NCBI RefSeq assembly: GCF_900289195.1
Contig: NZ_OMOH01000005.1
Coordinates: forward strand, 30,001 to 62,000
Direction: 5' to 3'
Origin: Propionibacterium ruminifibrarum
GTDB lineage: Bacteria > Actinomycetota > Actinomycetes > Propionibacteriales > Propionibacteriaceae
DNA length: 32,000 bases
The notes beneath the pieces are model-generated. The model searched no databases. It was given only the letters and a program-made list of their open reading frames with translations, and was not told the DNA's origin. Of this stretch, positions 1 to 15,273 are shown piece by piece (within the stretch, counting starts at the first letter, position 1; each line of letters starts with the position of its first letter). The position numbers were made by a program, and so were the translations under genes.

Positions 1-1905
1 ATCACCGCCCAGCTCGGCCGCGCCGACGCCGTGATCACCATCCACGGCGGCACCAGCCGCGAGGACCGCAAGGCCGCCCAGGAGCAGTTCACCCACAGTC
101 CCGAGACCGTGGTGCTGCTGGCCACCGACGCCGCAGGCGAGGGCCTCAACCTGCAACGCGCCCACCTCATGGTGAACTACGACCTGCCGTGGAACCCCAA
201 CCGCATCGAACAACGCTTCGGACGCATCCACCGCATCGGCCAGCGCGAGGTCTGCCACCTGTGGAACCTGGTGGCCTCCGACACCCGCGAGGGCGACGTG
301 TTCAACCGCCTGCTCAGCAAGATCGACCAGATGGGCAAGGCCTACGACGGCAACCTGTTCAACGTGCTGGGGGAGCGCGACGCCTTCCAGGAGCGCTCAC
401 TGCGCGATCTGCTCATCGAGGCCATCCGCTACGGCGACCAGCCCGAGGTCAAGGCCAGGCTGGGCAAGATCATCGACGCCGGGGTCTCGGCCGGCCTGGG
501 CGAGATGATACGCGAACGGGCCCTGCACCCCCAGATGTTCAGCGCCCTCGACCTGGACGCGGTACGGGCCCGCATGGAGCTGGCCAGGGAACGACGCCTG
601 CAACCCGGCTACATCGCCGCCTTCTTCCTGTCCGCATTCGAGCGGCTCGGCGGCCGCATCCGACGGCGCGAGAGCGGCCGCTACCAGATCACCCGCGTCC
701 CCGAGCGCCTCGTGGGCATCGCGCGGCGCGCCAACCGGTGGGCGCCGGTCGCGGACTCCTACGAACGCGTCACCTTCGAACTGGAGCGGGTCAGGGTCGA
801 CGGGCGCCCCACCGCCTCCCTCATCGCCCCCGGCCATCCGCTGCTGGGCGCCGTGATCGAGGCCACCATCGCCGACCTCGGCGAGGCCCTGTCCGCCGGC
901 ACCGTCCTGGTGGACCGCCGCAGCACCCAGGCCGAGACGCCCATGCTCATGTACACCGTCGAGCAGCGCATCCACAACGCCACATCGAAGGCCGACACCG
1001 TCTCACATCACTTCGACTACCCGCTCCTGGCCCGCGACGGCACGGTCACCGTCTCACCGGCCCCGCCCTACCTCGACTACGAGTCCCCGCGCGCGGGCGA
1101 ACGTGAGGCCATCGCAGCGGTGATTCGCGGCGAGTGGGTGCGTCAGAGCCACGACAAGGCGGTGCGGGCACACGCCTACCGCGAGGGGCTCTTGCCCAGG
1201 ATGGAAGAGGTCAGGGCCCGGCTGGAGGCCGAGGCGGCCCGCACCCGGGTGCAGGTCAAGGACCGGCTGCTGGCCGAGGTCAACCACTGGGACGCCGAGT
1301 ACAACCGCCTCGACGCCCTGGAGCGCTCCGGGGTCATCGGCCGGCTGCGGGCCGAGACCGCGCTGGCGAGGGCCCGCCAGCTCGACGACCGGCTCGACCG
1401 GCGCCTTCACGAACTCGACCAGGTGACGAATCTCGTCGCCGTGCCCTCGGTGATCCGCGGCACGGCACTCATCGTCCCCTCCCGCATGCTCGCACCCAGC
1501 CCCGGCGTGTTCGCCCACGAGACCGAGCAGGTGGAACGCCGCGCCGTCGAGGCGGTGCTCGCCGCGGAACGCGCCCTGGGGCGTACGCCGGTGGAGATGC
1601 CCCGCAACAATCCCGGCTACGACATCCGCTCCATCGACCAGGCCGGACGCACCCACTACATCGAGGTGAAGGGCCGCATCCACGGCGCCGAGACCTTCAC
1701 GATCACCACCAACGAGGTCACCTTCGCCCAGACCCAGGGCGACCGCCACCGGCTGGCGCTGGTCGAGGTCTCACCCGACGGCCCCGGGCATGACCGGCTC
1801 CGCTACGTGACGCAGGCCTTCTCACACATCGAACCGTCCGCCACCACCCGCTCCTACAACGAGGAGTGGCGCGGCTACTGGACCAGGGGCGGCCCGCCCC
1901 GATGA
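1..1905 (+). CDS. SNF2-family helicase, C-terminal part (5' end lies outside the window), with a C-terminal DUF3883-type PD-(D/E)xK nuclease-like domain
   Basis: Frame 1 is open from base 1 (ITAQLGRADA precedes the tracked GTG at 31). Helicase motif V is LLATDAAGEGLNLQ and motif VI is QRFGRIHRIGQ. The C-terminal GYDIRS...HYIEVKGR...FTITTNEVTFAQ...RLALVEV matches the DUF3883 signature. Confidence 0.85.
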   Translation: MTAQLGRADAVITIHGGTSREDRKAAQEQFTHSPETVVLLATDAAGEGLNLQRAHLMVNYDLPWNPNRIEQRFGRIHRIGQREVCHLWNLVASDTREGDVFNRLLSKIDQMGKAYDGNLFNVLGERDAFQERSLRDLLIEAIRYGDQPEVKARLGKIIDAGVSAGLGEMIRERALHPQMFSALDLDAVRARMELARERRLQPGYIAAFFLSAFERLGGRIRRRESGRYQITRVPERLVGIARRANRWAPVADSYERVTFELERVRVDGRPTASLIAPGHPLLGAVIEATIADLGEALSAGTVLVDRRSTQAETPMLMYTVEQRIHNATSKADTVSHHFDYPLLARDGTVTVSPAPPYLDYESPRAGEREAIAAVIRGEWVRQSHDKAVRAHAYREGLLPRMEEVRARLEAEAARTRVQVKDRLLAEVNHWDAEYNRLDALERSGVIGRLRAETALARARQLDDRLDRRLHELDQVTNLVAVPSVIRGTALIVPSRMLAPSPGVFAHETEQVERRAVEAVLAAERALGRTPVEMPRNNPGYDIRSIDQAGRTHYIEVKGRIHGAETFTITTNEVTFAQTQGDRHRLALVEVSPDGPGHDRLRYVTQAFSHIEPSATTRSYNEEWRGYWTRGGPPR

Positions 1906-1948
1906 TCCATCCCCGCCGCCCAATCTCACCGTCGACGAAAGCAGTCCC

Positions 1949-4717
1949 GTGACCAAGAAGAAACTCATCGAGACCTCCCTGCCGCTGGAGGCCATCAACG
2001 CCGCCTCCGCCCGCGAGAAGTCGATTCGTCACGGGCACCCGTCCACCCTGCACCTGTACTGGTCCCGCAAACCATTGGCCACCGCCCGTGCCGTGCTGTT
2101 CGCCCAACTCGTCGACGACCCCGCCTCCCGGCCCGAGGAATTCCCCACGACCGCGGAGCAGGATGCCGAGCGGGCGAGACTGCACGCGCTCATGGAGAAG
2201 CTGGTGGTCTGGGAGAACAGCTGGGACGAAGGTCTGCTGCGCCAGGCTCGTGACGAGATCCGCAAGAGCAACGACGGCCGGCTCCCGCCGGTGCTCGACC
2301 CGTTCGCCGGTGGCGGTTCCATCCCGCTGGAGGCGCAGCGGCTCGGCCTGGAGGCCCACGCCAGCGACCTCAACCCCCTCGCCGTGCTCATCAACAAGGC
2401 GCTCATCGAGATCCCGCCCAAGTTCGCAGGAATGGCCCCGGTCAACCCGGACGCCCGCGACCAGAGCCTCTACCAGCGCGCGGAGGGGCTGGCCGCGGAC
2501 GTGCGCTACTACGGGCAGTGGATGCGCGACGAGGCGGAGCGCCGCATCGGTCACCTCTACCCGAAGGTCACCGCCCCCGACGGAACCGAGCACACCGTCA
2601 TCGCTTGGAAATGGGCGCGCACCGTCAAGAGTCCCAACCCGGCCAACCCCATCGAGGTGCCCCTGGTGAACTCGTGGTGGCTCAGCAAGAAGAAGGGCAA
2701 AGAGGCTTGGGTGCGCGCCACAGTGCGGGGCGGACAGGTGCACTACGAGGTAGTGCACAGCGCCGATGGGCCACGCGGCGAGGACGAGTGGACTATCAAG
2801 CATGGGAAAGGTGCGAAAGCAGTTGGTGATGGAACTCCCTTCAGCTACGACTACATCCGAGAAGAGGGGCTCAATGGTCGAATAGGATCCCATCTCATCG
2901 GTATTGTGGCAGAAGGGCAGCGGGGGCGTTTGTATTTCTCGCCATCGCAGGATCATGTTGCTGCGGCGCAGGTGGCACGTCCTGATATCAGTGTAGATGG
3001 CCAGATCGCAACCAATCCCAGGTGGTTCTCGCCTCCGGCCTATGGGAAGAAATACTTCTCCGAACTTTTCACGAACCGCCAGCTCGTGGCCATGACGACC
3101 CTCAGTGACCTCGTCGCTGAGGCGCGGGAGCGAGTAGTGAATGATGCTCTGCCTAAGGGGTTGCCAACAGGAGACCGTCTTGAGGCTGGTGGCAATGGCG
3201 CCCAAGCCTACGCCGATGCGGTGGCTACGTACCTTGCGCTAGGGGTGAGTCGTACTGTCGACTACTGCAATGCCATGTGTAGCTGGCATTCTGGGCGAGA
3301 TACGATCCGTAACATTTTTTCAAGGCAAGCCATTCCTATGGTCTGGGATTACGCCGAGGTGAATCCTTTTTCGGGTTCTTCGGGTAATTTTCTTGGTCAA
3401 GTTGAATGGGTTGTCAAAGCTCTCGAGTGTGTTCCAGCATCTGCCTGTGGCACTGCTGCACAAATCAGTGCTGTGGAGCGTGACTACAGTGGCCTCGTTG
3501 TCTCGACGGATCCGCCCTACTACGACAACATCGGTTACTCTGATTTGTCGGATTTCTTCTACGTTTGGCTGCGCCGCTCACTCAGGGACATTCATCCGAC
3601 GGTTGTCAGCACGATGCTCACCCCCAAGGCCGACGAACTCGTCGCCAATCCGTACCGTCACGACGGCAAGGAAGGGGCGGAACGGTTCTTCATCGACGGC
3701 TTCAACTCCGTCTTCGCTCGCGTCCGCCAAGGCGACAACCAAGCGGTGCCTATGACGGTGTACTACGCCTACAAACAGCAGGACGCGGAGGCCGATGGTA
3801 CCTCGTCCACCGGCTGGCACACCCTTCTTGACGGGCTCATCAAGGCCGGCTGGGAGATCACCGCCACGTGGCCGATGCGTAGCGAACTGACAAATCGGAT
3901 GCTCTCTCAGGGCACCAATGCTCTGGCGTCCTCGATCGTTCTGGCCTGCCGCCCCCGCCCCGTCGATGCGGAGTCCACCACCCGCCGGGCGTTCGTGGCT
4001 CGCCTCAAATCTGAACTGCCGGGGGCACTGCGCACGCTCATGCAGGGCGCCATCGCTCCGGTGGATCTGGCGCAGGCCGCCATCGGCCCCGGCATCTCGG
4101 TGTTCTCCCGGTATGCGCGGGTGCGTGAGGCGGACGGCTCCGACATGAGCGTGAAGGACGCGTTGCTGCTGATCAACGCAACCCTCGACGAGGTGCTCGG
4201 TGAGCAGGAGTCCGACTTCGACCCCGACACCCGTTTCGCCGTCAGGTGGTACCGCAGCTACGGCTGGGCCACCGAGAGCTCGGGCATGGCCGACCAGCTC
4301 GCCCGCGCCTCGGACACCTCCATCGGGGCGCTGGAACGCGGCGGAATCTTCGAAGCCAAGGGCGGCAAGGCCCGGCTGCTGCCGCCGGCCGAGCTGCAGG
4401 ACGCCTGGAACCCCGCGTCCGACGAACGCCTGAGCGTCTGGGAGGCCACGGTGCGCCTGGCCGCGGTCATGGACGATCAGGGAGCCGACGCGGTGGCCCA
4501 ACTACTGGCCGAGGCGCGGGACCACGTGAACCTCGACGCCGTCAAGGAACTGGGCTTCCTGCTGTTCCACGAGGCCGAGAAGAAGAACCAGGCCAAGGAC
4601 GCGCTGCTGTTCAACGGCCTCGTCAGCGCCTGGGGCGACATAGCGGAGCAGGCCCGCCGCATCGACCCGAGCTCCCGATCGGCACAGGCGGCGTTCGACT
4701 TCAACGAGGAAGAGTAA
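1949..4717 (+). CDS. DUF1156-family DNA methyltransferase (amino-methyltransferase type with DPPY catalytic motif)
   Basis: 922-aa ORF with a GTG start 43 nt after the helicase stop. N-terminal LIETSLPLEAINAASAREKSIRHGHPSTLHLYWSRKPL is the DUF1156 signature. SAM-binding motif I is LDPFAGGGSIPLEA. Catalytic motif IV is STDPPYY (DPPY at nt 3509-3520). Confidence 0.9.
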   Translation: MTKKKLIETSLPLEAINAASAREKSIRHGHPSTLHLYWSRKPLATARAVLFAQLVDDPASRPEEFPTTAEQDAERARLHALMEKLVVWENSWDEGLLRQARDEIRKSNDGRLPPVLDPFAGGGSIPLEAQRLGLEAHASDLNPLAVLINKALIEIPPKFAGMAPVNPDARDQSLYQRAEGLAADVRYYGQWMRDEAERRIGHLYPKVTAPDGTEHTVIAWKWARTVKSPNPANPIEVPLVNSWWLSKKKGKEAWVRATVRGGQVHYEVVHSADGPRGEDEWTIKHGKGAKAVGDGTPFSYDYIREEGLNGRIGSHLIGIVAEGQRGRLYFSPSQDHVAAAQVARPDISVDGQIATNPRWFSPPAYGKKYFSELFTNRQLVAMTTLSDLVAEARERVVNDALPKGLPTGDRLEAGGNGAQAYADAVATYLALGVSRTVDYCNAMCSWHSGRDTIRNIFSRQAIPMVWDYAEVNPFSGSSGNFLGQVEWVVKALECVPASACGTAAQISAVERDYSGLVVSTDPPYYDNIGYSDLSDFFYVWLRRSLRDIHPTVVSTMLTPKADELVANPYRHDGKEGAERFFIDGFNSVFARVRQGDNQAVPMTVYYAYKQQDAEADGTSSTGWHTLLDGLIKAGWEITATWPMRSELTNRMLSQGTNALASSIVLACRPRPVDAESTTRRAFVARLKSELPGALRTLMQGAIAPVDLAQAAIGPGISVFSRYARVREADGSDMSVKDALLLINATLDEVLGEQESDFDPDTRFAVRWYRSYGWATESSGMADQLARASDTSIGALERGGIFEAKGGKARLLPPAELQDAWNPASDERLSVWEATVRLAAVMDDQGADAVAQLLAEARDHVNLDAVKELGFLLFHEAEKKNQAKDALLFNGLVSAWGDIAEQARRIDPSSRSAQAAFDFNEEE

Positions 4718-4720
4718 GCC

Positions 4721-5551
4721 ATGGCCACGAAGCAGTCCCAGCCCCCACGTGGCCAAAAGGATGGCCCCGGCGCGGCGACCGCGTCCGCGGCCTCGTCCGG
4801 GGCTTACGTGCCCAAGGCTACCACCCCGGGTGACGCTTGGACCAGTCCGGTGGTTCCGTCCGATGCCTCGGATGGATCGTCCTCGGCTCCAGTTCCGGTC
4901 GGCATGCTGTTCCGACTGTTGAGCACAGAACGTATGGCCACCTATGCTGCCGAGTGCGCAGAGGACATGGAGCAGGCTCTGCGCCTTTACGCGTGGAACA
5001 CCGCGGTCTCCGCAGCCCTATGGGGAAGCTTCAACATTCTTGAGGTCACGCTGCGGAACGCTGTCGATCGTCAGCTGGCTGAACTTGCAGGGCGCACGGA
5101 CTGGTGGCGCGGGGAGAACCTGCTGCGCGATCAGGAAAGCCGTATTGCTCAGGATGCGGTGAGGGCGGCGAAGCGAACACACTCCGACCTCGAGATCCAG
5201 CCCGGGCACACCGTGGCAGAACTGACTCTTGGCTTCTGGGTCGGACTGCTCGCCAACAGGTATCACCAGCGGCTGTGGGTGCCCGCTCTTCATCGAGCCT
5301 TCCCCTACTGGCACGAAACGCGTAGGGAGCTGCATCGCAGGCTCGAGTCGCTGCGCAAGCTTCGTAACCGAGTTGCCCACCACGAACCGATCTTTGCCCG
5401 AAAACTAGTGGTAGACCATGACCAGTTGCTCGAAATTCTCGAAGGAATCGCCCCAGAGGCGGCAGCATGGGTTCGGCAGAACTCTCGCGTCCCGGACGTG
5501 CTCAGCCGACGCGCCCAGATTATTGCAGGCGCTGACAGTACCACCTTCTAG
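4721..5551 (+). CDS. Abi_2 / AbiD-AbiF-like abortive-infection protein (HEPN fold)
   Basis: LRKLRNRVAHHEPIF (RNxxAH HEPN motif, nt 5363-5380) plus N-terminal LRLYAWNTAVSAALWGSFNILEVTLRNAV are typical of the Abi_2 family. ATG 4721 lies 3 nt after the methylase stop and has a GAGGA Shine-Dalgarno about 10 nt upstream. The recognisable domain only begins near the alternative ATG at 4904 (MLFRLLSTER), so the start is ambiguous. Confidence 0.7.
   Translation: MATKQSQPPRGQKDGPGAATASAASSGAYVPKATTPGDAWTSPVVPSDASDGSSSAPVPVGMLFRLLSTERMATYAAECAEDMEQALRLYAWNTAVSAALWGSFNILEVTLRNAVDRQLAELAGRTDWWRGENLLRDQESRIAQDAVRAAKRTHSDLEIQPGHTVAELTLGFWVGLLANRYHQRLWVPALHRAFPYWHETRRELHRRLESLRKLRNRVAHHEPIFARKLVVDHDQLLEILEGIAPEAAAWVRQNSRVPDVLSRRAQIIAGADSTTF
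4761..4820 (+). repeat. Junction repeat copy A (hairpin-forming, GC-rich)
   Basis: atGgccccggcgcggcgaccgcGTCCgcggcctcgtccggggctTacgtG... aligns without gaps to 6691-6750 at about 50 of 60 positions. The outer 7-bp stem is gccccgg/ccggggc, and an inner stem flanks the variable centre. Confidence 0.8.
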
Positions 5552-5581
5552 AGGACAACGATGGCGATGAACAACCGAGAT
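5542..5581 (+). repeat. Direct repeat copy 1 (Abi stop, RBS and codons 1-7 MAMNNRD)
   Basis: cacCttctagAGgacaacgatggcgatgaacaaccgagat matches 7452-7491 at 37 of 40 positions. Weaker similarity extends about 12 nt further upstream. Confidence 0.9.
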
Positions 5582-6676
5582 AAAGCGCGGCGTGATGGTG
5601 CAGCAAGCCGCCATTCTGCCCCAGGTCTGACGCCGTTCCCGGCCTTCGCGGAATCGGTCAGTGCTGGTGACGGTGAACTCGTGGAGCAGGTGTCGGCTCT
5701 GATCGACCAGGCTCAAGCGTTCGCTGCGGCGCAGGCGAACGCGACCTTGACCCTGCGGAACTGGTACATCGGGCGCTTGATTGACGTAGCCGTGCTGCGC
5801 GAGGGCCGCGCAGGGCACGATCAAGAACTTGTTGCGTCACTGGCGCAACAATTGACCTCAAGGTACGGGCGCGGCTATGACCGGACAAACCTGTACCGGA
5901 TGGTGCGATTCTCCCAACAGTTCACCGATCCAGAACGTGTTGCGTCGCTGGCGCAACATGTCAGTTGGACTCACTTCCGCGAGCTGCTCCCACTCGGCTC
6001 CGATGAGGCGCGCATCTTCTACGTGCAGGAGACTATCGATCGCCGACTCAGCGTCCGGGAGCTGCGCCACGCCATCTCCCGCAAGGCTTTCGAGCGCCGC
6101 GAGATCGCCGACTCACAGATTCCCGAAGGGTCAGGAACGCCACTGGACGCGTTCCGCGACCCGATGCTGCTCGACATGCTCGGTCTCGCGGACACGTTCC
6201 TGGAGCGCGACCTCGAAGCCGCCCTGCGTCATGACATGGAGGCGTTCCTGCTGGAAGCCGGCCGCGGGTGGGCGTTCGTTGAACGGCAGAAGCGCATGAC
6301 CTTCGACGGCGATGACTACTTCCTCGACCTGCTGTTCTACTCAAGGCCACTGCATCGGTTGATTGCGGTTGAGCTGAAGGTCGGAAAATTCAAGCCCAGT
6401 TATCAAGGGCAGATGAACTTCTATCTGAAGTGGCTCGACAGGTACGAACGGCAGGCTGACGAGAACCCGCCCATTGGCCTGATCCTGTGCACCGAGGCGA
6501 GCCGGGACCAGATCGAGTTGCTTGAGTTGCACAAGGACGGGATTGTCGTCGCCGAGTACTGGACGACGCTGCCGCCCAAGGCCGAGCTCCAGGCCCGGAT
6601 CGCCCAGATCTACCGGGAGGCCCAGGAGCGGATCGCCCGGCGGCAGCTCACGGCGCCGGAGGCCAGCGATGAGTAA
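5561..6676 (+). CDS. DUF1016 / YhcG-like PD-(D/E)xK nuclease domain protein
   Basis: N-terminal helical region ANATLTLRNWYIGRLI. C-terminal nuclease core YFLDLLFYSRPLHRLIAVELKVGKFKPSYQGQMNFYLKWLD (D...ExK). The first 7 codons (MAMNNRD) and the RBS are a copy of the DUF499 gene start. Confidence 0.85.
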   Translation: MAMNNRDKARRDGAASRHSAPGLTPFPAFAESVSAGDGELVEQVSALIDQAQAFAAAQANATLTLRNWYIGRLIDVAVLREGRAGHDQELVASLAQQLTSRYGRGYDRTNLYRMVRFSQQFTDPERVASLAQHVSWTHFRELLPLGSDEARIFYVQETIDRRLSVRELRHAISRKAFERREIADSQIPEGSGTPLDAFRDPMLLDMLGLADTFLERDLEAALRHDMEAFLLEAGRGWAFVERQKRMTFDGDDYFLDLLFYSRPLHRLIAVELKVGKFKPSYQGQMNFYLKWLDRYERQADENPPIGLILCTEASRDQIELLELHKDGIVVAEYWTTLPPKAELQARIAQIYREAQERIARRQLTAPEASDE

Positions 6677-6690
6677 CCCCACATACAACG

Positions 6691-6750
6691 ATTGCCCCGG
6701 CGCGGCGACCGCTGGAGCGGCCTCGTCCGGGGCTCACGTCGACAATGCTA
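6691..6750 (+). repeat. Junction repeat copy B
   Basis: atTgccccggcgcggcgaccgcTGGAgcggcctcgtccggggctCacgtC...; see copy A. It begins 15 nt after the DUF1016 stop. Confidence 0.8.
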
Positions 6751-6767
6751 TAGGGGCCAGCAAACCG
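6749..6767 (+). repeat. Left inverted repeat bracketing the mazEF module
   Basis: The reverse complement of tataggggccagcaaaccg matches cggtttgctggccctata at 7395-7412, with a single 1-nt indel (gggg versus ccc). Confidence 0.8.
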
Positions 6768-6821
6768 CGTCGGGCCGGGTGGGGTGGGGGATCGGTAAAC
6801 CGACAGGGATACACTCAAGGT

Positions 6822-7070
6822 ATGACTTCGTTGACCACTATCAAGGTGTCCACGGGCACCAGGGACCGGCTGCGCGAGGCCTCCCGCGCCGCGGGCATCT
6901 CTCAGGCTGCGCTCATCGAGCAGATGCTCGACGCGCGCGAGGAGGCCGCCTTCTGGGAGGCCCTCGATGCCGCGCCCCCGTACACCGACGAGGAGCGGGA
7001 GGAGTTCCGTCGCGGCGAGGCGGCCTCGTTGGCGGATGCGGCGCGCCTGTTGGAGGATGAGGAGCGGTGA
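6822..7070 (+). CDS. Ribbon-helix-helix type antitoxin, partner of the MazF/PemK toxin
   Basis: 82-aa acidic protein. N-terminal TTIKVSTGTRDRLREASRAAGISQAALIEQML looks like an RHH beta-strand plus two helices. Its stop overlaps the toxin start (GTGA at 7067-7070). An alternative upstream ATG at 6669 has GGAGG 6 nt upstream and would add a 51-aa N-terminal extension, so the start is uncertain. Confidence 0.7.
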   Translation: MTSLTTIKVSTGTRDRLREASRAAGISQAALIEQMLDAREEAAFWEALDAAPPYTDEEREEFRRGEAASLADAARLLEDEER

Positions 7071-7381
7071 CGCCTCTGCCCCATCCGGGCGACGTGGCGT
7101 GGCTTGACATGTCCCCGACCATCGGGCGGGAGCAGCGGGGCCACCGCCCCTATCTCGTGCTCTCCGATGCCCGGCTCCACCGGGCGCGACAGCTGGTGAT
7201 CGGGGTGCCGCTCACGACGCGCAACAGTCCGATCCCCACGCGCGTCGCCGTCGGCGAGGGGTCGTACGCCATCGCGGAACAACCCACGACGTTCTCGATG
7301 GAGAGGATCACCAGGGTGGAGGCCCGCGGCCTCGACACCGCCGAGGTGCGGCGCGTCATCGTTCGGCTGCTCGGGGGATGA
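7067..7381 (+). CDS. mazF: MazF/PemK-family type II toxin (endoribonuclease)
   Basis: 104 aa. PGDVAWLDMSPTIGREQRGHRPYLVLS ... VIGVPLTTR is the typical PemK/MazF N-terminal SH3-like signature. There is a 4-nt overlap with the upstream antitoxin. Confidence 0.85.
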   Translation: MTPLPHPGDVAWLDMSPTIGREQRGHRPYLVLSDARLHRARQLVIGVPLTTRNSPIPTRVAVGEGSYAIAEQPTTFSMERITRVEARGLDTAEVRRVIVRLLGG

Positions 7382-7394
7382 ACCTCCTTGAGGT

Positions 7395-7412
7395 CGGTTT
7401 GCTGGCCCTATA
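7395..7412 (+). repeat. Right inverted repeat bracketing the mazEF module
   Basis: cggtttgctggccctata, 14 nt after the mazF stop; see the left repeat. Confidence 0.8.
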
Positions 7413-7451
7413 CAAGCATCACCCGGGACGTCGTCACCGGGACTGAAGCAT

Positions 7452-7491
7452 CACGTTCTAGGAGACAACGATGGCGATGAACAACCGAGAT
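7452..7491 (+). repeat. Direct repeat copy 2 (RBS and codons 1-7 of the DUF499 ATPase gene)
   Basis: cacGttctagGAgacaacgatggcgatgaacaaccgagat; see copy 1. Confidence 0.9.
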
Positions 7492-10400
7492 CGAGTGGGC
7501 AGGGCCTTCGACCTGCTCTCCGAGGGTCTCCACGACCTGGTGGACGAGGTGATGACCAAGACCTACAACTCATCGCAGTGGCCTGACGCGTGGGCCGAGG
7601 AGGATGCCCGGCGTCGGGGTGGCCCCGTGAGGACCATGACCAAGCAGGACGTCCAAGTGCAGCTTCGCGCCATCACCGAACGCGGCTACGAGTTCAAGGA
7701 CGTGCTGTCCCGGGCTCAGCAGAGCTTCGCCTCCGAACTGCGCGAGACCCGCAACAAGTGGGCGCACAACGAGCCGTTCAGCTCCGACGACACCGTCCGC
7801 GCCCTCGACACCATCGAACGGCTCCTCGAAGCAGCGGGATCCACCGACTCGGCCGCCGACGTGCGCAAACTGCGCACCGACCTGCAACGCACCGTCTACG
7901 AGGAACAGACCCGCAAGCAGGCCAAGAAGGCCACCACGGTGTCCCTCGAACCTGGGGCCGGGCTGAAACCCTGGCGCGAGGTGATAAGGCCCCACGACGA
8001 CGTGGCCAGGGGCGAGTTCACCGCCTCCGAGTTCGCCGCCGACCTGCACTTGGTGCACACCGGACAGGCCACCAGCCCGGAGTACGGCGACCCGGTGGAG
8101 TTCTTCTCCCGCACCTACCTCACCGAGGGCCTGCGCGATCTGCTGTCCCGGGCCCTGCGCCGCCTGGATGGCGACGGCAACGCCAGCCCGGTGGTGAACC
8201 TTCAGACCAACTTCGGCGGCGGCAAGACCCACTCCATGCTCGCCCTCTACCACCTGTTCTCCGGAACCCCGGCGCAGCGCCTCCCGCAGGACGTGCAGGA
8301 ACTCGTCGCCGAGGTCGGCAACCCCGACCTGGCGGCGCTCAACGTCAGGCGGGTCGCCCTGGTCGGCACATACCTGAAGGCGGGATCGCCGCAGGTCAAA
8401 CCGGACGGCACCCAGGTGCACACCCTGTGGGGCGAGCTGGCATGGCAGCTCGGCGGGCGCGAGGCCTATGACATCGTCGCCGACGACGACCGGGCGGGCA
8501 CCAGCCCCGGCGAGGCGCTGCGAAGGCTGATCCAGGCCTACGCCCCGGCGCTCATCCTCATCGACGAGTGGGTGGCCTACGCCCGCCAGTTGGTCACCGA
8601 CCAGGAACTCCCCGCCGGCTCCTTCGACACCCAGTTCACCTTCGCCCAGTCCCTGACCGAGGTGGTGCGGTCGGTCCCGGGGGCCATGCTCGTGGTCTCC
8701 ATCCCCGCCTCCGACAGCGGCGACCGGGGAAGCGACATCGAGATCGGCGGGGCCAACGGGCAGCTCGCCCTCGACCGCCTCCAGAACGTCATCCGCAGGG
8801 TGGCCGACCAGTGGAGGCCCTCCAGCCGGGACGAGTCCTTCGAGATCGTCCGCCGACGCCTGTTCCAGGCCCCGGACGCCGCAGGACTCACCTACATCTC
8901 GGCAGTGGCCCGCACCTTCGCCACCATGTACCGGAACAACTCGGCGCTGTTCCCCCGGGACGCGGCGACACCGAACGACGACTACGAGAAACGCATCCGC
9001 GCCTCGTACCCCCTGCACCCCGAACTGCTGGACCGGCTGTACGAGGACTGGTCCGCGTTGGAACGGTTCCAGCGCACCCGCGGGGTGCTGAAACTGGTGT
9101 CGTCCATCGTCCATGAGCTGTGGGCCTCGAACGACACGTCCCCGCTGATCCTGCCCGGCAATGTGCCGCTGGACGCCACGACGGTGAACACCGATCTGAC
9201 CCAGTACCTGGAGGACCAGTGGAAGCCGATCATCGACTCCGACATCGACGGCGCCAGCTCGACGGCCCAGCGGATCGACCTGGACCGTCCCAGTCTGGGG
9301 CAGCGGTTCGTGACACAGCGCATCGCCCGCACCATCTTCATGGGGGCGGCGCCCCGCAGCCGGAGTGCCCGCAAGGGGCTGGACAAGCAGTACGTGTGGC
9401 TCGGCACCGCCGTGCCCGGCGACGTGCTGGGCAACTTTGGTAGCGCCATCGAGCAGCTGGCCCAGCGCTCCACGTACTTCTACGAGGAGCAGGGCCACTA
9501 CTGGTTCGACACCCAACCGTCCGTCACCAAGACCGCCAGCGACTACGCCGAGAGGCTGCGCGAGGACGTCGAGACGGTGTGGAACGAGATCACCAGGCGG
9601 CTCCGCGGCGAGGAACGCAGCCGCGCCGAGTTCGACCGGGTGCACGTGGCCCCCGAATCCAGCGCCGACATCCCCGACCTGGAGGACACGCGGCTGGTGA
9701 TCGCGCACCCCAGGCACAGCGTCCGCAGGCAGGATGGACCCGACTCGGAGGCCTTCCAGTGGGTGCACGAGGCGGTCGAGACGAAGGGGGCCGGGCAGCG
9801 CATCCACCGCAACACGCTGATCTTCCTGCTGGCCGATTCGGGCCAGCTGGAGAGCCTGGAGTCCGCGACGCGCACCTACCTGGGCTGGAAGCAGGTGCAG
9901 GCGACCAGTGAGACCTTGAACCTCACGGCCCAGCAGCACAAACAGGCCGACGAGTGGGTGAGTCGTCTGGACCAGACCGTCACCGACCGGATCCGCGACA
10001 CCTTCGTGTGGGCGCTGTACCCCGAGCAATTCGACCCGACCAAACCCTTCGACGTGGTGTCGAGCAGGATCCTCGACTCCGGCACACGCTCCCTCGCCGA
10101 ACGGGTGAGCACGAAACTCGTACGCGAGGAACAGCTGATCACCCAGCTGGGCGCGGCCAGCCTGGGGGACGCGCTGCACCGGGAACTGGGGGCGCTGTGG
10201 CAGGACAGGGGCGAGATCACGGCCGAGGAACTGTGGGGCTACTTCACCCGGTACACCTACATGCCGAGGCTGGCCAGCCGGGACGTGCTCGACAACGCCA
10301 TCAAGCAGTCACTGACCGCCGTGCTTGTCGAGAACGAACGCTTCGCGATCGCCACCGGCAAGGACGAGGAAACGGGCCGCTACCGCGGCCTGCTCATCCC

Positions 10401-10872
10401 GCCCGACCCCAACGCCACGCTTCAGGTCACCGACGGCACGCTGCTCGTCGCAATCGAGCGCGCCCAGCAGCAGGTCGATGCGGAACAGGCCGATGCCGCC
10501 CAACCCGCCGGAACCAGTGTGGCAACGGATGCCGGTCAGACGGCTGCGGGTGGTTCAGCCGACTACGTGTGGGCCAGCGGCATACCCGCGGCAACGGGGA
10601 GCGAACAGTCCGGTGCTGAATCGGAACTGGAGGCCGTGCTCGGTCGTTTCTTCGGGTCGGTCAGGATCAACTCCGACCGCTACAACCGCGACATCGGCAA
10701 CATCACCCGCGAGGTCATCGACCGGCTGGCCGGCTCCGGTGCCCAGCTGGAAATCACCATCGACATTCAGGCCATCAAGAAGGAAGGATTCACCGAGTCC
10801 GAGGTGCGTACCATCAGCGAGAATGCGCGGGTGCTGAAGTTTGACCCCGATTCGGGCTTCGAGCAGGACTGA
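7471..10872 (+). CDS. DUF499-family P-loop ATPase with N-terminal Swt1-like HEPN domain
   Basis: 1133 aa. HEPN motif ETRNKWAHNEPF (nt 7750-7767). Walker A is NFGGGKTHSML and Walker B is ALILIDEWVAY. C-terminal FFGSVRINSDRYNRDIGNITREVIDRL...ENARVLKF is typical of DUF499-type ATPases. Confidence 0.85.
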   Translation: MAMNNRDRVGRAFDLLSEGLHDLVDEVMTKTYNSSQWPDAWAEEDARRRGGPVRTMTKQDVQVQLRAITERGYEFKDVLSRAQQSFASELRETRNKWAHNEPFSSDDTVRALDTIERLLEAAGSTDSAADVRKLRTDLQRTVYEEQTRKQAKKATTVSLEPGAGLKPWREVIRPHDDVARGEFTASEFAADLHLVHTGQATSPEYGDPVEFFSRTYLTEGLRDLLSRALRRLDGDGNASPVVNLQTNFGGGKTHSMLALYHLFSGTPAQRLPQDVQELVAEVGNPDLAALNVRRVALVGTYLKAGSPQVKPDGTQVHTLWGELAWQLGGREAYDIVADDDRAGTSPGEALRRLIQAYAPALILIDEWVAYARQLVTDQELPAGSFDTQFTFAQSLTEVVRSVPGAMLVVSIPASDSGDRGSDIEIGGANGQLALDRLQNVIRRVADQWRPSSRDESFEIVRRRLFQAPDAAGLTYISAVARTFATMYRNNSALFPRDAATPNDDYEKRIRASYPLHPELLDRLYEDWSALERFQRTRGVLKLVSSIVHELWASNDTSPLILPGNVPLDATTVNTDLTQYLEDQWKPIIDSDIDGASSTAQRIDLDRPSLGQRFVTQRIARTIFMGAAPRSRSARKGLDKQYVWLGTAVPGDVLGNFGSAIEQLAQRSTYFYEEQGHYWFDTQPSVTKTASDYAERLREDVETVWNEITRRLRGEERSRAEFDRVHVAPESSADIPDLEDTRLVIAHPRHSVRRQDGPDSEAFQWVHEAVETKGAGQRIHRNTLIFLLADSGQLESLESATRTYLGWKQVQATSETLNLTAQQHKQADEWVSRLDQTVTDRIRDTFVWALYPEQFDPTKPFDVVSSRILDSGTRSLAERVSTKLVREEQLITQLGAASLGDALHRELGALWQDRGEITAEELWGYFTRYTYMPRLASRDVLDNAIKQSLTAVLVENERFAIATGKDEETGRYRGLLIPPDPNATLQVTDGTLLVAIERAQQQVDAEQADAAQPAGTSVATDAGQTAAGGSADYVWASGIPAATGSEQSGAESELEAVLGRFFGSVRINSDRYNRDIGNITREVIDRLAGSGAQLEITIDIQAIKKEGFTESEVRTISENARVLKFDPDSGFEQD

Positions 10873-10914
10873 ACTAAATTAAGGCTGAAATCAGAGATGC
10901 TGCTGACAGGGAGT

Positions 10915-10932
10915 AAAACCATTTTTGGTTTT
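10915..10932 (+). terminator. Weak AU-rich hairpin plus T-rich tail after the DUF499 gene
   Basis: aaaacca-tttt-tggtttt followed by gtgtattgtttc, 43 nt after the stop codon. The stem has only 2 G:C pairs. Confidence 0.35.
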
Positions 10933-11735
10933 GTGTATTGTTTCTGATGTGCAGGCTGGGGTCACATTCGAAGAAGTTTTCACCCTTGCCGCGTGGAAGG
11001 AATGGTTGCCATCTATGTGTTAGCTCGGATGGGGACCGAAGCGATCTGTTATGCTTCAAGGGACCGGTGATTAGGATCTTGCGTAGTGGGAAGGCTACAC
11101 GGGGATGGTTTGCAGACTGATAGGGCACCAGGATGTGCTTGACCCCGATTCGTTACGTGAGGAACCCAGCCGTTGTGAAACTCTCCTGTGCTCAGAAAGA
11201 AAAGGAAGAAGAGTTTCGACTAGTCATCAAAACTAGTGTTCATGATGGATTCGGGCTTGACGTCTTGAAAATCCTGAATGTGTTACTACGTTTTGATCCA
11301 CTGGCATCGTAAATCCGGTTAGCTGTACATTTTCTTGACGCATTTCAAAGTGACATTTTACCAATCCGATGCTTAGTGTCCTGGGTTTTCGATTCTCTGG
11401 CATGTCTAACTTCATACAGATAAATGCCGCTACTTCTGCTAAACTGGTCTGTATATCAGTCACACATCTCAATCGATTTTCCATAAGAGCGAACTCTATC
11501 ATAGAGTGATAAAGCGCCTCCGGGGTGCATGTCAGATCAAGGGCGCGTTATGTGTGAAAAGACTGGGTTGTAGTAAGCTCAGTCTGAGTGTGTGAGGACA
11601 ACTAAAGCAGGACATGGCGGGTGGGAACTATCGGTGCTGAATCCAAGGCCTGAGCGGTTGTGAACTCAACAAGACAGTTTGAATACTGCTTGCGGGAAAA
11701 GGGATTGGGCTTCACTGGAAACGCATAAAGTGAAA

Positions 11736-11778
11736 GAATAGACGCTATCATGATAGCGGAGTACTTCGGCGTCTATTC
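11736..11778. repeat. Nested palindrome in the non-coding part of the AT-rich island
   Basis: The 10-bp arms gaatagacgc (11736-11745) and gcgtctattc (11769-11778) enclose a perfect 14-bp palindrome gctatcatgatagc (11744-11757). The palindrome shares 2 nt with the left arm, so the two pairings compete. Confidence 0.7.
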
Positions 11779-11854
11779 GCGGAGTGATACAAGTAAAGTT
11801 GCTAAAATCTGTTCTATGGTGCTCCTCCGATGTTGCCCTCGCCAAGACTGATCG

Positions 11855-13111
11855 ATGTTTTCTGCTATCGTTCCGAGTATGAAAGGTCATCCACGCATGC
11901 CTCCTTACGGATCTGCACGGGATCTCCCATCAGTCAAGGAGATAGAACAGCAAATAGCAGCATTCAAGAAGGTGATGTTCTTTTCGCGTGATAAACGGAG
12001 GCGGCTAGAGCAGTTAGAAAACAAGCATCGACATATAATAGAAACCGTTGACACTTTCTATGACTTGCTCGGGGCGCGCAACTGGGTTTTCACTGATGAT
12101 CTCAACTTAGATGAGATTCAAAAAGTCGTGGCTGGCTCTGATTCGCAGGTGGCGGAAAAGCGTCTTATTGAGTATTACCAGAAAACTGGACGAATCTCAT
12201 CTCTACTTCGTCAGCTCAGCCGATTTGACGAGATGCAGAAGCGTCTTCCCCTGCTACAGAAGGCGCTGGCTGATTATGAAGCGGGTCGCTACTACAGCAC
12301 CGTTCTTGTCATACTTTCAATGATGGATGGTTCCGTCAATGACCAGGACACGGCACAACGCAGAGGACTGCATGCACGTTCGCCCGAAGATATGATGGCC
12401 TGGGATAGCGTCGTCGGGCATCATCTTGGGCTGGGGCATGCTCACAAATCCTTCGTTAAAGCGTATTTCAAGACAGATGAAACCGAAATTACTGAGCTGG
12501 CTCGTAATGGAATCATGCACGGCACTTTGGTGAACTATGACAACGTAGTAGTCGCAACAAAAGCTTGGAATCGTCTTTTTGCAGTTGCTGACTGGGCTGA
12601 TGCGCGGAAGCGACAAAAACGACCTGTTGAACCAGCGCCCTCGTATAGAGAATTAATGACACGTTGGTGTAAAATCCAGTCTAACAAGACTAAGATTGAA
12701 CAGTGGCAGCCGTATGAGTATGATCCAAACTTACCGCATGAAGATCCCGCTGAAGTTGCCATGGTGTGCGCAGACTTTCTTGAGCGATGGAGTAAGCGCC
12801 AATGGGCGCCGATGGGTGAGTACTTTATAAAACTCGTGAACCCCCAGCGGCCCCCCGGCCAACTTGCGCGAGAAGCCAGGGATCTTTACGAGCAGTTCAA
12901 TCTTGACGAATGGAAGATCCTTAGAGTGCGACACGAGGCCGCTGCCGTCGCGTATACTGATGTGCAGCTCATAGTGAATTCCAGGATTTACCTGGCTGAT
13001 CTACGTTGGATTCATGTTGACGGTAATGAGAAAACTGCCATGGAATGGGAACCTGGACGTTGGGTGCTGTCACCGTATGGGCCAAATAAATTCCTCAGTA
13101 TCGACGATTAA
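11855..13111 (+). CDS. Hypothetical protein (418 aa) with a HEPN-like Rx4H motif; orphan gene of the AT-rich island
   Basis: This is the only long ORF in the island, and its low-GC codon usage is consistent with the island. The pattern LQKALADYEAGRYYSTVLVILSMMDG ... ELARNGIMHG (R217-x4-H222, nt 12503-12520) resembles a HEPN four-helix bundle. The N-terminus is predicted coiled-coil-like, and the C-terminal ~150 aa is an unrecognised globular region. The start is uncertain (ATGs at 11855, 11879, 11897). Confidence 0.6.
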   Translation: MFSAIVPSMKGHPRMPPYGSARDLPSVKEIEQQIAAFKKVMFFSRDKRRRLEQLENKHRHIIETVDTFYDLLGARNWVFTDDLNLDEIQKVVAGSDSQVAEKRLIEYYQKTGRISSLLRQLSRFDEMQKRLPLLQKALADYEAGRYYSTVLVILSMMDGSVNDQDTAQRRGLHARSPEDMMAWDSVVGHHLGLGHAHKSFVKAYFKTDETEITELARNGIMHGTLVNYDNVVVATKAWNRLFAVADWADARKRQKRPVEPAPSYRELMTRWCKIQSNKTKIEQWQPYEYDPNLPHEDPAEVAMVCADFLERWSKRQWAPMGEYFIKLVNPQRPPGQLAREARDLYEQFNLDEWKILRVRHEAAAVAYTDVQLIVNSRIYLADLRWIHVDGNEKTAMEWEPGRWVLSPYGPNKFLSIDD

Positions 13112-13476
13112 AGTTATTCATGGTGCCCGCGGATGAGGTATAGTATCGCGACACTTCGAGTGAAGGCTTCTGCTGATAAGGTTGCTAGTGTCGCGAGTCG
13201 TTAGTTTTGATGGTTTGGGGTCAGGGAAGATCTCGCCGTGAGGAATTCTCTGGTTCCTGTTTTAGTGTTAAATGGTTATGGTTGGGGTTGCTGTAGTTAT
13301 GGGCGGGCTGTCATTGACTTGCACTGGGCCTGCGATGAGGGATTGGGGCCGTGCTGCTCGCGATTGGACGGGTTCAGATGCGGGTCTCATGCGCTCCATT
13401 CATCAGCGTGTCGGAGCGTGACGTCGTACTCGTTGTCGGAAGGCCGCCCCCGACATATACATGTTAGATTGTATGT

Positions 13477-14040
13477 ATGAGACGGACGGCTGAGGCTGCG
13501 GAGCAGACGCGGCGCGCGCTGCTGGAGGCGGCGCTGTTGACCTTCGAGGAGAGGGGCTGACGCGGGGCGACCTTCGAGGTCGTCGCCGCTCGCGCAGGTG
13601 TCACCCGCGGCGCGTTGCACCATCACTTCAGTTCCAAGGCCGTGCTGCTCGAGGACGCGCTCGCATGGGGCTGGGCCGAGTACGGGGCACGGCTCTTCGA
13701 TGTCGAACCCGCGGACCTGGCGGCACTGCTGCCCGAGTTCGTGCACCTCCTGCGCGAGGACGCCAGGTTCCGCGCCCTGGCGGCCTGCACGGTGCTCGTC
13801 GCGCCGCAGGCCCTCGGCGACACCGCCGGGAAGAACGCCGCACTCGATGCCTGGCGCGACCGTATCGCCGCCGGCCTCCCCGCCACTTCCGAATCCACCC
13901 CAGAAACGGTCGCAGCCCTGGCGCTGGTGCTCGTGCAGGGGCTCACCGTGACAGCCGTGATGCGCCCCGACGATCTTCCCCGGCCCGACGAGCTGAGCGC
14001 CACGATCTCGGCGCTGGCAAGGGGGTTGCGCCCGACATAG
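13477..14040 (+). pseudogene. TetR-family transcriptional regulator interrupted by an in-frame TGA at 13558-13560
   Basis: ATG 13477 gives MRRTAEAAEQTRRALLEAALLTFEERG, then TGA. The same frame continues RGATFEVVAARAGVTRGALHHHFSSK (TetR HTH) into the tracked ORF 13615-14040. The stop falls just before the HTH. Confidence 0.75.
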
Positions 14041-14061
14041 TCAGAAAGGAGTCGTCACCTC

Positions 14062-15231
14062 ATGGCGACACCCGACACCACCTCCGCCACCACTCCAAGC
14101 CATGCCCTCGTCGTCGGCTCGGTGGCACTGTTCACCGACATGCTCGTACACGGCCTCGCCGTGCCCGTGCTCCCGCTGCTCCCGTCAGTGGTCGCCCGTG
14201 GCCCGGCCGCCACGGGCGTCCTGTTCTCGGCGTACGCGGCAGCGATGATCGTCTCGACACTGTTCGCCGGCCGTGTCGTCGACCGTCGCGGGCCGCGGAT
14301 GCCGCTGCTCATCGGCCTTGTGGGCCTGGCCGTGGCCACGCCGCTGTTCGCCACCGGCGGCCCCTACTGGCTGCTGCTCGTCGCCCGGCTCGCACAAGGC
14401 GTCGCGGGCGGCATGTCCTGGGTCGCCGCGCTCTCGCTGATCGCCGCGACGACGAGCCTCGAACGACGCGGACAGGCGATGGGGATCGCCATGTCCACCA
14501 TCACCCTCGGCGTGCTGATCGGCCCGCCGCTGTCCGGGTTCATGGTCGAACGCCTCGGTACGGCCGCCCCGTTCCTGCTCGCCGCCGCCGTCGCCCTCGC
14601 CGACGGTATGCTGCGCATCCTCCTCGTCAAGGATTCACCACGAGTCACCGACGACACCGCGGGCCCGCGACAGGTGCTGCGGGTCCCCGGCTCGGCCGCC
14701 ATCGTCACCGCCATCGCGATCGGGGCGGGCGTGCTCTCCGCCGTCGAACCGGTGCTCCCGGTGCACCTGGGGGCCGGATCGCTCCTCATCGGCCTGCTGT
14801 TCGCCCTGGCCTCGCTCGCCGCGATCCTCGCCAATCCCGTGGTGGGGCGCTGCGTTGCGACGGCCCCGCCGCGACTGCTCATCGGCTCGGGCGTGGCCAC
14901 GGCCTCGGCATCGCTGGCCCTCATCGGTTGGGCCGACCGGCTGTGGCAGACCGGTGTGGCCATGGCGCTGCTCGGCGTCTCGTCGGCGCTGCTGCTCGCC
15001 CCGGCGACCACCCTCATCGGCGAGCAGGGCCTCCGGGTCGACCCGCCCACACTCGGCGGCTCCTACGCGCTGTACAACCTCGCCTACGCGGCCGGCCTGT
15101 CGCTCGGGCCCCTGCTCGCCGGGCTCGGCGTGCAGCGGGCGGGCTTCACCGCCGCGATGACGACAGGGGCCGTGCTCCTGGTCGCCGTCGGCGGAACGGT
15201 CCTGCCGGGTCTTCCACGGACCGTGCCGTGA
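14062..15231 (+). CDS. MFS transporter (probable efflux pump paired with the upstream TetR)
   Basis: 389 aa with a polytopic hydrophobic profile. MFS motif A is FAGRVVDRRGPRMPLLIG. Confidence 0.85.
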   Translation: MATPDTTSATTPSHALVVGSVALFTDMLVHGLAVPVLPLLPSVVARGPAATGVLFSAYAAAMIVSTLFAGRVVDRRGPRMPLLIGLVGLAVATPLFATGGPYWLLLVARLAQGVAGGMSWVAALSLIAATTSLERRGQAMGIAMSTITLGVLIGPPLSGFMVERLGTAAPFLLAAAVALADGMLRILLVKDSPRVTDDTAGPRQVLRVPGSAAIVTAIAIGAGVLSAVEPVLPVHLGAGSLLIGLLFALASLAAILANPVVGRCVATAPPRLLIGSGVATASASLALIGWADRLWQTGVAMALLGVSSALLLAPATTLIGEQGLRVDPPTLGGSYALYNLAYAAGLSLGPLLAGLGVQRAGFTAAMTTGAVLLVAVGGTVLPGLPRTVP

Positions 15232-15273
15232 CGCGCGAAACCGCACGTCCGGACGGCAGGACAGTCCGGCGTA

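Follow-up and report, generated by a model that had tools for sequence, protein, structure and literature searches.

In this study, we analyzed a stretch of 32,000 nucleotides from Propionibacterium ruminifibrarum (NCBI RefSeq assembly GCF_900289195.1, contig NZ_OMOH01000005.1, positions 30,001 to 62,000 of the forward strand; hereafter the window), which has a base composition of approximately 70% GC and opens with a run of plus-strand genes spanning positions 1 to 10872. This run almost certainly encodes an intact Hma (helicase, methylase, ATPase) system in the PADLOC classification, alias the Type-1 DUF499-centred system related to bacteriophage exclusion (BREX), in its HEPN-fused variant. 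The window starts within the first gene, hmaA, and the full locus was read from the window's own contig, identified by an exact-protein look-up (L001; the L001 coordinate equals the window coordinate + 8052). The comparison set comprised 80 related genome loci, supplemented with protein-anchored loci (e.g., L020, L124-L129 and L133). The core genes, all on the plus strand and inside 14.5 kb of their own contig, are the following:

1-1905, plus strand: 3' part of hmaA, encoding residues 537-1170 of a 1170-residue Swi2/Snf2 helicase with a C-terminal NOV_C/DUF3883 PD-(D/E)xK nuclease domain
1949-4717, plus strand: hmaB, encoding a DUF1156 N6-adenine DNA methyltransferase (Pfam DUF1156 2.7e-29; PADLOC HmaB E=0)
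2681-3508, plus strand: variable target-recognition region (TRD) of hmaB, HmaB residues 245-520
7471-10872, plus strand: hmaC, encoding an N-terminal Swt1-type HEPN domain fused to a DUF499 STAND/ORC-like AAA+ ATPase

The gene order hmaA-hmaB-hmaC is kept, syntenic and contiguous, in most of the 80 related loci, and hmaC starts 10-15 nt past hmaB in most relatives. In the window, hmaB and hmaC are not adjacent; 2.75 kb with four further genes lie in between.

We assign the locus to Hma because full-length PADLOC matches to HmaA, HmaB and HmaC come together with the Pfam domains, conserved catalytic motifs and the gene order. The window part of hmaA is a 5'-truncated open reading frame (ORF) that matches Pfam Helicase_C (1.4e-19) and NOV_C, formerly DUF3883 (3.7e-20), and covers positions 532-1159 of the 1176 positions of the PADLOC HmaA profile (1.7e-176). 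The full-length gene (L001 6445-9957, 1170 amino acids) adds ResIII/SNF2, an intact Walker A motif (DDPGAGKT) and a DEAH box (VVDEAH). The D...ExK...E signature of NOV_C corresponds to D541, E555, K557 and E572 of the fragment, i.e., D1077, E1091, K1093 and E1108 of the full protein, and these residues are invariant in an alignment of 61 relatives. In HmaB, motif I (DPFAGGGS) is found at residues 117-124 and motif IV (DPPY) at residues 521-524; apart from one substitution at the D position of DPPY, the catalytic motifs are invariant among 75 relatives. HmaC matches Pfam HEPN_Swt1 (1.8e-34, residues 11-121), DUF499 (1.5e-32) and PADLOC HmaC (4.7e-271) and displays the HEPN motif RNKWAH (94-99), Walker A GGGKT (249-253) and Walker B LIDEW (363-367). 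R94, H99, the GGGKT residues and D365/E366 are invariant in 64/64 relatives, with conservative variation at I364 and W367.

A preliminary description of this DNA had proposed three same-strand genes for a DUF3883 helicase, a DUF1156 methylase and a HEPN-DUF499 ATPase, and Pfam and PADLOC recover all of these domains where it had placed them. The motifs it quoted (DPPY, Walker A, RNxWAH of the HEPN domain and ExK of DUF3883) are likewise all present, with no or hardly any variation among 61-75 relatives taken from the 80 genome loci, so that the agreement far exceeds chance. It was right that annotation tools list a helicase/methylase/ATPase system of this kind, namely Hma in PADLOC, and that the locus has no classical restriction endonuclease gene. 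Its expectation of possible further components upstream did not hold, as the full hmaA on its own contig starts the system. The region 5' of hmaA is an island-like setting (L001 3302-6340) made up of tRNA-Ala(CGC), then an excisionase-like helix-turn-helix (HTH) gene and three small, divergently oriented genes on the opposite strand (DUF3039, DUF3024 and an ORF of 72 amino acids). Since only divergently oriented small genes and the tRNA-Ala precede hmaA, it is the first gene and the system has no upstream components. The island adjoining tRNA-Ala comprises approximately 18 kb, and ordinary housekeeping genes follow from 13.6 kb of the window on; neither an attachment (att) repeat, a repeat of the tRNA-Ala 3' end included, nor an integrase was found.

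The core triad is an already catalogued system in its commonest form. Rakesh and Krishnan (NAR 2026, PMC12839542), who trace the first notice of the system to a 2013 HEPN survey, report the Type-1 DUF499-centred BREX-related system from 2446 taxa, with the HEPN fusion in 1370, hence the commoner form; they describe all of its domains and propose a model akin to restriction-modification (R-M) with the HEPN domain as last-resort RNase. Halomonas HmaA by itself protects E. coli against T4, which requires the helicase domain and the PD-(D/E)xK residues (D/ExK/E) of NOV_C, and the isolated C-terminal domain of HmaA nicks supercoiled plasmid (Liu et al., 2024, PMC11232893). With T4 protection and nickase activity published and the system classified and modeled, the earlier statement that the triad has no characterized mechanism no longer stands. 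The behavior of the operon as an insertion hotspot is also already published: inserted defence genes occur in approximately two thirds of hma loci (PMC11232893), and insertions into the operon are reported in PMC12839542 as well; auxiliary nucleases likewise have a published precedent. The window core has the same three proteins, domain architectures and gene order, without any difference, and the triad itself is one more intact Hma/Type-1 BREX-related locus beside the few thousand catalogued.

A likeness to type 3 BREX, also pointed out in PMC12839542, lies in three homologous components: the Snf2 helicase (BrxHII in BREX), the N6-methylase (BrxXI), into which a TRD is inserted, and the ATPase of STAND/ORC-like type (BrxC). 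PADLOC cross-matches, which point to kinship with DISARM as well, were obtained with BrxHII (3e-36, helicase) and DrmD (8.5e-31), in addition to a weak BrxC match of HmaC (1e-4). The window locus differs in that helicase and nuclease form one protein, the methylase begins with DUF1156 and a HEPN domain is part of the ATPase. Domain searches revealed no PglZ, BrxA, BrxB or BrxL-type genes among the ORFs of the operon or its flanks, which sets the locus apart from canonical BREX. A search of solved structures with HmaA matched only generic Snf2 proteins and RapA.

What is unusual at this locus is the presence of four extra toxin/nuclease genes and a conserved RNA hairpin, D1, within an otherwise ordinary Hma operon. 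Compared to other Hma systems, the window locus carries its own passenger set between hmaB and hmaC, comprising Abi_2 with the hairpin, a chimeric DUF1016 gene and a MazEF element:

4721-5551, plus strand: embedded gene 1, Abi_2-family HEPN protein (motif RNRVAH), with the Abi_2 domain from approximately 4904 on and hairpin D1a in the leader (4721-4903)
4755-4812 (core 4764-4803), plus strand: D1a, conserved RNA hairpin GCCCCGGCGCGGCGACCGC-GTCC-GCGGCCUCGUCCGGGGC, just 5' of the Abi_2 domain
5537-5581, plus strand: D3a, copy of the ribosome-binding region of hmaC with its initial seven codons (ATGGCGATGAACAACCGAGAT = MAMNNRD), now the DUF1016 start
5561-6676, plus strand: embedded gene 2, DUF1016_N + YhcG_C PD-(D/E)xK nuclease with a chimeric N-terminus
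6685-6742 (core 6694-6733), plus strand: D1b, second hairpin copy with loop UGGA, at the same position in loci L002 and L129
6751-7410, no strand: transposase-less RHH-MazF element of 660 bp with inverted-repeat ends TAGGGGCCAGCAAACCG (6751-6767) and CGGTTTGCTGGCCCTA (7395-7410) and TA at 6749-6750 and 7411-7412
6822-7070, plus strand: embedded gene 3, ribbon-helix-helix (RHH) antitoxin (Pfam RHH_10 3.8e-4, below cut-off)
7067-7381, plus strand: embedded gene 4, MazF/PemK endoribonuclease toxin (Pfam PemK_toxin 2.5e-15; NCBIfam MazF 1.5e-13, below the equivalog cut-off)
7447-7491, plus strand: D3b, native hmaC leader consisting of ..TTCTAG (last codons of a former Abi_2 gene), GGAGACAACG, ATG and the first seven hmaC codons

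The Abi_2 gene matches Pfam Abi_2 with 26.9 bits (6.8e-6; cut-off 25.6) and, in PADLOC, PD-T4-5 (2.5e-18) and AbiD (3.2e-6). Residues R154/N155/H160 of its RNRVAH motif are invariant in 41 homologues and follow the Rx4-6H spacing of HEPN domains; the AlphaFold2 model of the protein is all-helical with a predicted local distance difference test score (pLDDT) of 96.8. In the case of the DUF1016 gene, the matches are Pfam YhcG_C (1.2e-43), DUF1016_N (1.4e-33) and the PADLOC candidate PDC-S02 (3.4e-107). Its DUF1016_N coding region contains a 33-nt direct repeat (5818-5850 / 5926-5958, 91% identical, 108 nt apart), which may represent an internal helix duplication. For the RHH antitoxin, 99% identical in L002 (the corresponding Propionibacterium australiense locus), an alternative longer reading of 133 amino acids from position 6669 is possible.

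Including the domains of HmaA and HmaC, the operon is predicted to encode five nuclease-type effectors rather than two. The preliminary description had named DUF3883 and HEPN as the only candidate effectors; both are present, but the Abi_2 HEPN protein, the DUF1016/YhcG nuclease and MazF are encoded as well. Its view that both DNA- and RNA-targeting outputs are possible we judge plausible. Most junctions are tight: 3 nt lie between the hmaB stop and the start of the Abi_2 gene and 9 nt between the latter's stop and DUF1016, and the antitoxin gene overlaps mazF. Because the genes are tightly packed and mostly start-stop coupled, co-expression as a multi-effector defence operon is most likely. 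A scan of positions 1-13700 for sigma-70 promoters and terminators gave no intra-operon sites beyond chance, and an Rfam search of window positions 1-14000 gave no match.

The value of the locus is mainly carried by two features, a natural TRD-swap pair and the Abi_2-associated hairpin, which is not listed in Rfam. With regard to the former, the P. australiense island (L002) shares 95-100% nucleotide identity with that of the window, the exceptions being the lack of Abi_2, a different 5' half of DUF1016 and a different TRD. At the protein level, the N-terminal part of HmaB is 97.9% identical between both species and the C-terminal part 95.4%, compared to 60.9% for the TRD; the nucleotide identity falls to 54-84% across the TRD versus 95-100% in its flanks. 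It looks as if the TRD has been swapped by recombination relative to the otherwise near-identical P. australiense island, and the divergence is of the kind that diversifying selection on a modification enzyme would be expected to produce. The two methylomes of this natural P. ruminifibrarum / P. australiense pair could tie TRD sequence to methylation motif.

The second feature, hairpin D1, is a conserved RNA hairpin on actinobacterial Abi_2 genes. D1a and D1b are identical at 37/37 specified stem positions and differ in their 4-nt loops, the loop being hypervariable in D1 generally (core GCCCCGGCGCGGCGACCGC-NNNN-GCGGCCUCGUCCGGGGC), with covariance model scores of 78 and 75 bits, respectively. 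Across 1.47 Mb of loci, the covariance model retrieved only the known D1 copies, all on the plus strand. A scan of metagenome contigs with the 24-nt D1 core yielded 30 matches, of which 16 are full hairpins in hma loci, located 5' of Abi_2 homologues (49-62% protein identity) or, in loci with a deletion of Abi_2, in the interval from hmaB to hmaC. Copies from such a core-sequence scan are ascertainment-biased; the unbiased set, collected via protein homology, consists of L020, L124-L129 and L133, and all of these loci carry the hairpin. Further coordinates are L020 12804-12861, L129 10035-10092 and 11954-12011, L127 6035-6092, L002 13888-13945 and L133 7898-7953. In an alignment of 18 D1 sequences, 98.6% of the cells are paired, with double changes at two positions; four C>U changes yield G.U pairs, and two G.U pairs occur in every sequence. 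The pattern is consistent with an RNA of the sense strand only. Locus L133, from Subtercola, is a stand-alone Abi_2 gene (47% identical) with a divergent upstream gene and no hma, and its hairpin lies in an untranslated leader. When folded separately, this hairpin keeps the outer stem, and the inner stem has changed in a compensatory manner from CCGC/GCGG to AACG/CGUU. D1 thus accompanies Abi_2 homologues of 47-89% identity, in Hma as well as stand-alone contexts. The alternative that a conserved N-terminal peptide (NCPGAATAxAASSGAY) is the main constraint on D1 was rejected, as D1 is out of frame with Abi_2 at several loci and the peptide is scrambled in L133, where the pairing is kept.

AbiF/Abi_2 toxins are neutralized by a cis-encoded structured RNA (PMC12373285; PMC12737573), and the translation of abiD1 is gated by a leader hairpin (PMC2661086). 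By analogy, D1 may serve Abi_2 as an RNA antitoxin of the AbiF type, or else as a translational gate or regulator. The likeness to AbiF-AbiFr, C. difficile AbiF-RCd22 and RF03085 consists of an Abi_2 HEPN gene with a stable, conserved hairpin of approximately 40 nt ahead of it, in cis and in the same orientation, which shows covariation and accompanies the gene through different genomic contexts. Compared to the AbiF-type systems, however, D1 comprises one hairpin per gene, usually inside a translated leader, has no RF03085 match and is known from sequence alone, not as a separate small RNA. Several observations speak against an RNA partner. No Rfam family, the abiF motif RF03085 included, matches D1 (searched as a 221-nt stretch) even at E<=10, and D1 persists where Abi_2 has been deleted. 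The Abi_2 protein has no detectable solved-structure match by sequence, profile or fold (model vs. PDB), and its structure matches do not include 8VZ6, the solved structure of AbiF that is cited in PMC12737573. We word the role of D1 as RNA partner conditionally because the hairpin mostly lies within the translated leader or N-terminal extension of the Abi_2 gene, outlasts the loss of Abi_2 and differs from the abiF motif, and because Abi_2 has no significant structural neighbor. More tentatively still, D1 might represent an undescribed class of AbiF-type RNA partners (antitoxin or translational gate) for an actinobacterial Abi_2 clade, unrelated in sequence to the abiF motif and nested in BREX-related operons, where it would make the release of an abortive RNase depend on the state of the restriction-operon mRNA, with the orphan D1b supplying a second RNA to a dimeric toxin; we regard this as possible, with the odds somewhat against it.

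The arrival of the passengers can be read from two direct repeats that frame the insertion region, D1 (4757-4820 / 6687-6750) and D3 (5537-5581 / 7447-7491). D3 is a 45-nt repeat with 89% identity of which the final 28 nt are fully identical. DUF1016 genes without an upstream Abi_2 (L002, L008, L015 and L028) begin with MPGSRD or MSGGRD; those of the window and of L129, a metagenome-assembled genome (MAG) of the Actinomycetaceae, begin with MAMNNRD and are joined at a shared CGAGAT. The MAMNNRD start indicates that DUF1016 was joined to a segment consisting of Abi_2 and then the start of hmaC. D1b and the ..TTCTAG tail before hmaC are the remains of a gutted second Abi_2 gene, of which no more than about 29 nt at the 3' end can be recognized. 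A remnant of the Abi_2 body was also sought between MazF and hmaC, and beyond these 29 nt the similarity is no better than that of shuffles. Likewise rejected were integron-like cassettes with D1 and D3 as recombination sites, given that D3 is a copied hmaC start and D1 a duplicated Abi_2 leader.

In the case of MazEF, L129 provides the reference, having the window architecture minus MazEF and a slot of approximately 100 nt, 3' of its D1b, that is empty. The empty site of L129 (11985-12010) reads AATGC-TA-CGGCATC, and the filled site of the window AATGC-TA-(element)-TA-CAAGCATC. The 17/16-nt inverted repeats and the TA on both sides, versus a single TA in L129, indicate that MazEF came on a small, TA-duplicating, transposase-less element. 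Like non-autonomous IS630/Tc1-mariner-like elements, the MazEF carrier has inverted repeats at its termini and, relative to an empty site, a duplicated TA target site. Among all loci, the element ends form a full insertion site only in the window, L001 and L002, two viral-contig matches being chance single arms, and no cognate transposase was found among the loci compared. The extra layers thus appear to have been gained by recombination between hma alleles and one transposition.

The passengers outlive the host system in decayed relatives. In the decayed L129 locus (9590-15480), one deletion has fused the N-terminal part of hmaA with the C-terminal part of hmaB, and Abi_2, DUF1016 and hmaC are kept. 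The decayed L127 locus (4694-6939) retains only DUF1016 and Abi_2, plus an hmaC(1-17)::hmaB-3' fusion ORF and an hmaC stub of 46 amino acids, with a ParD/Zeta pair adjoining. The window locus together with L129, L127, L020 and L133 forms a series at base resolution of passengers entering and outliving a defence operon. Embedded defence genes are similarly known from type I R-M and BREX loci, which harbor toxin/nuclease genes between modification and restriction subunits and exchange TRDs between alleles (PMC12839542, PMC11232893). What distinguishes the window from such loci is that its junctions are readable at base resolution, with a copied hmaC start driving DUF1016 and a TA duplication around MazEF.

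On the whole, we consider it likely that the locus is an intact Hma system with an R-M-like mechanism and extra layers of passenger effectors. The mechanism is drawn mostly from family knowledge, the HmaA step alone having been shown, in another species. HmaB would methylate adenines at a motif read by its TRD and so mark self DNA, as suggested by homology and the TRD swap. HmaC, a STAND/ORC-type ATPase with winged helix-turn-helix (wHTH) domains and a BrxC-like architecture, would assemble on or scan the DNA and license the attack on unmarked DNA. HmaA would translocate by its Snf2 motor and nick or cut with its C-terminal PD-(D/E)xK domain, in line with the helicase- and nickase-based defence shown elsewhere. 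The HEPN domain fused to HmaC may, on the precedent of other HEPN proteins, be a second-line RNase that shuts down the cell if DNA restriction fails. From their position and family, Abi_2, DUF1016 and MazF may provide additional abortive or auxiliary layers. By analogy to AbiF-AbiFr and AbiD1, the Abi_2 toxin would probably be restrained by, or regulated via, the D1 hairpin in its leader.

This model has several points against it. Structure searches returned no solved structure for any relative of HmaB or HmaC. In addition, Halomonas HmaA was sufficient against T4 in E. coli, with an abortive-infection (Abi)-like phenotype in which infected cells became dormant and were not lysed; the one published attempt to show methylation-dependent self/non-self discrimination for Hma was negative, as propagation of T4 on a host expressing HmaB gave the phage no protection from HmaA; and hmaB is absent at 14.7% and hmaC at 19.3% of hmaA loci (PMC11232893). 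These data from Halomonas give real experimental backing to the chief rival, in which HmaA is a self-sufficient effector of the abortive-infection type (helicase + nickase) and HmaB and HmaC are accessory or regulatory rather than part of an R-M-like pair. We nevertheless find this explanation rather unlikely for the window, as hmaA-hmaB-hmaC are syntenic in most of the 80 loci and the methylase motifs are conserved. A TRD swap between near-identical islands makes sense only if sequence specificity matters, and L129 has lost hmaA and hmaB together by its single deletion, as expected for a toxin/antidote-like pair. T4 DNA is moreover heavily modified and is a poor test of escape by adenine methylation.

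An improbable alternative to an intact, R-M-like Hma system is that the locus is a decaying relic, in which the 2.75-kb insertion uncouples hmaC from hmaB and only the embedded toxins matter. Decayed relatives do exist, L129 without hmaA and most of hmaB and L127 without all three core genes, but in the window the three core ORFs are full length versus the profiles and their catalytic residues are all intact. The starts at the gene junctions are coupled, and hmaC retains its native ribosome-binding region. The arrangement is repeated on most of 10 listed contigs from several samples, several of these contigs being incomplete, and insertions are normal for hma systems, in approximately two thirds of which they occur (PMC11232893). 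A relation to the core of the multi-gene methylation-associated defence system (MADS) had been mentioned as possible in the preliminary description, and both are, in general terms, methylation-associated multi-gene systems. A view of the triad as core or reduced version of the eight-gene MADS is nonetheless barely credible: no protein of the locus has a MADS family among its PADLOC matches, the MADS preprint defines an 8-gene operon with MAD6-8 mandatory, compared to three core genes here, and its text is free of the terms DUF499, DUF1156, helicase and ATPase, and the 2026 survey sets the triad beside BREX type 3 with no mention of MADS (PMC12839542).

The gene run is followed, 3' of hmaC, by a foreign-looking segment of 47% GC (10873 to approximately 13300) that is absent from P. 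australiense and holds one orphan gene:

11855-13111, plus strand: orf418, orphan gene of 418 amino acids in the low-GC segment directly following hmaC

The preceding 980 nt or so (10873-11854) are AT-rich, lack a convincing ORF or Rfam match and are not conserved upstream of the orf418 homologues in L092 and L093. The orf418 protein has no match in Pfam, PADLOC, NCBIfam or PHROGs and is 100% identical to a P. ruminifibrarum hypothetical protein. Its model combines a helical N-terminal part with an NTF2-like C-terminal cone. The invariant RNGIMH of orf418 aligns with the HEPN motif of HmaC, a hint of a possible HEPN domain, at an hhalign E of 0.07, a probability of <1% and low model confidence at that place. 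At least 683 proteins belong to the family, and every source-named member is an actinobacterial hypothetical protein. Homologues are also found on Rhodococcus plasmids and, elsewhere, beside TIR, HigB and transposase genes.

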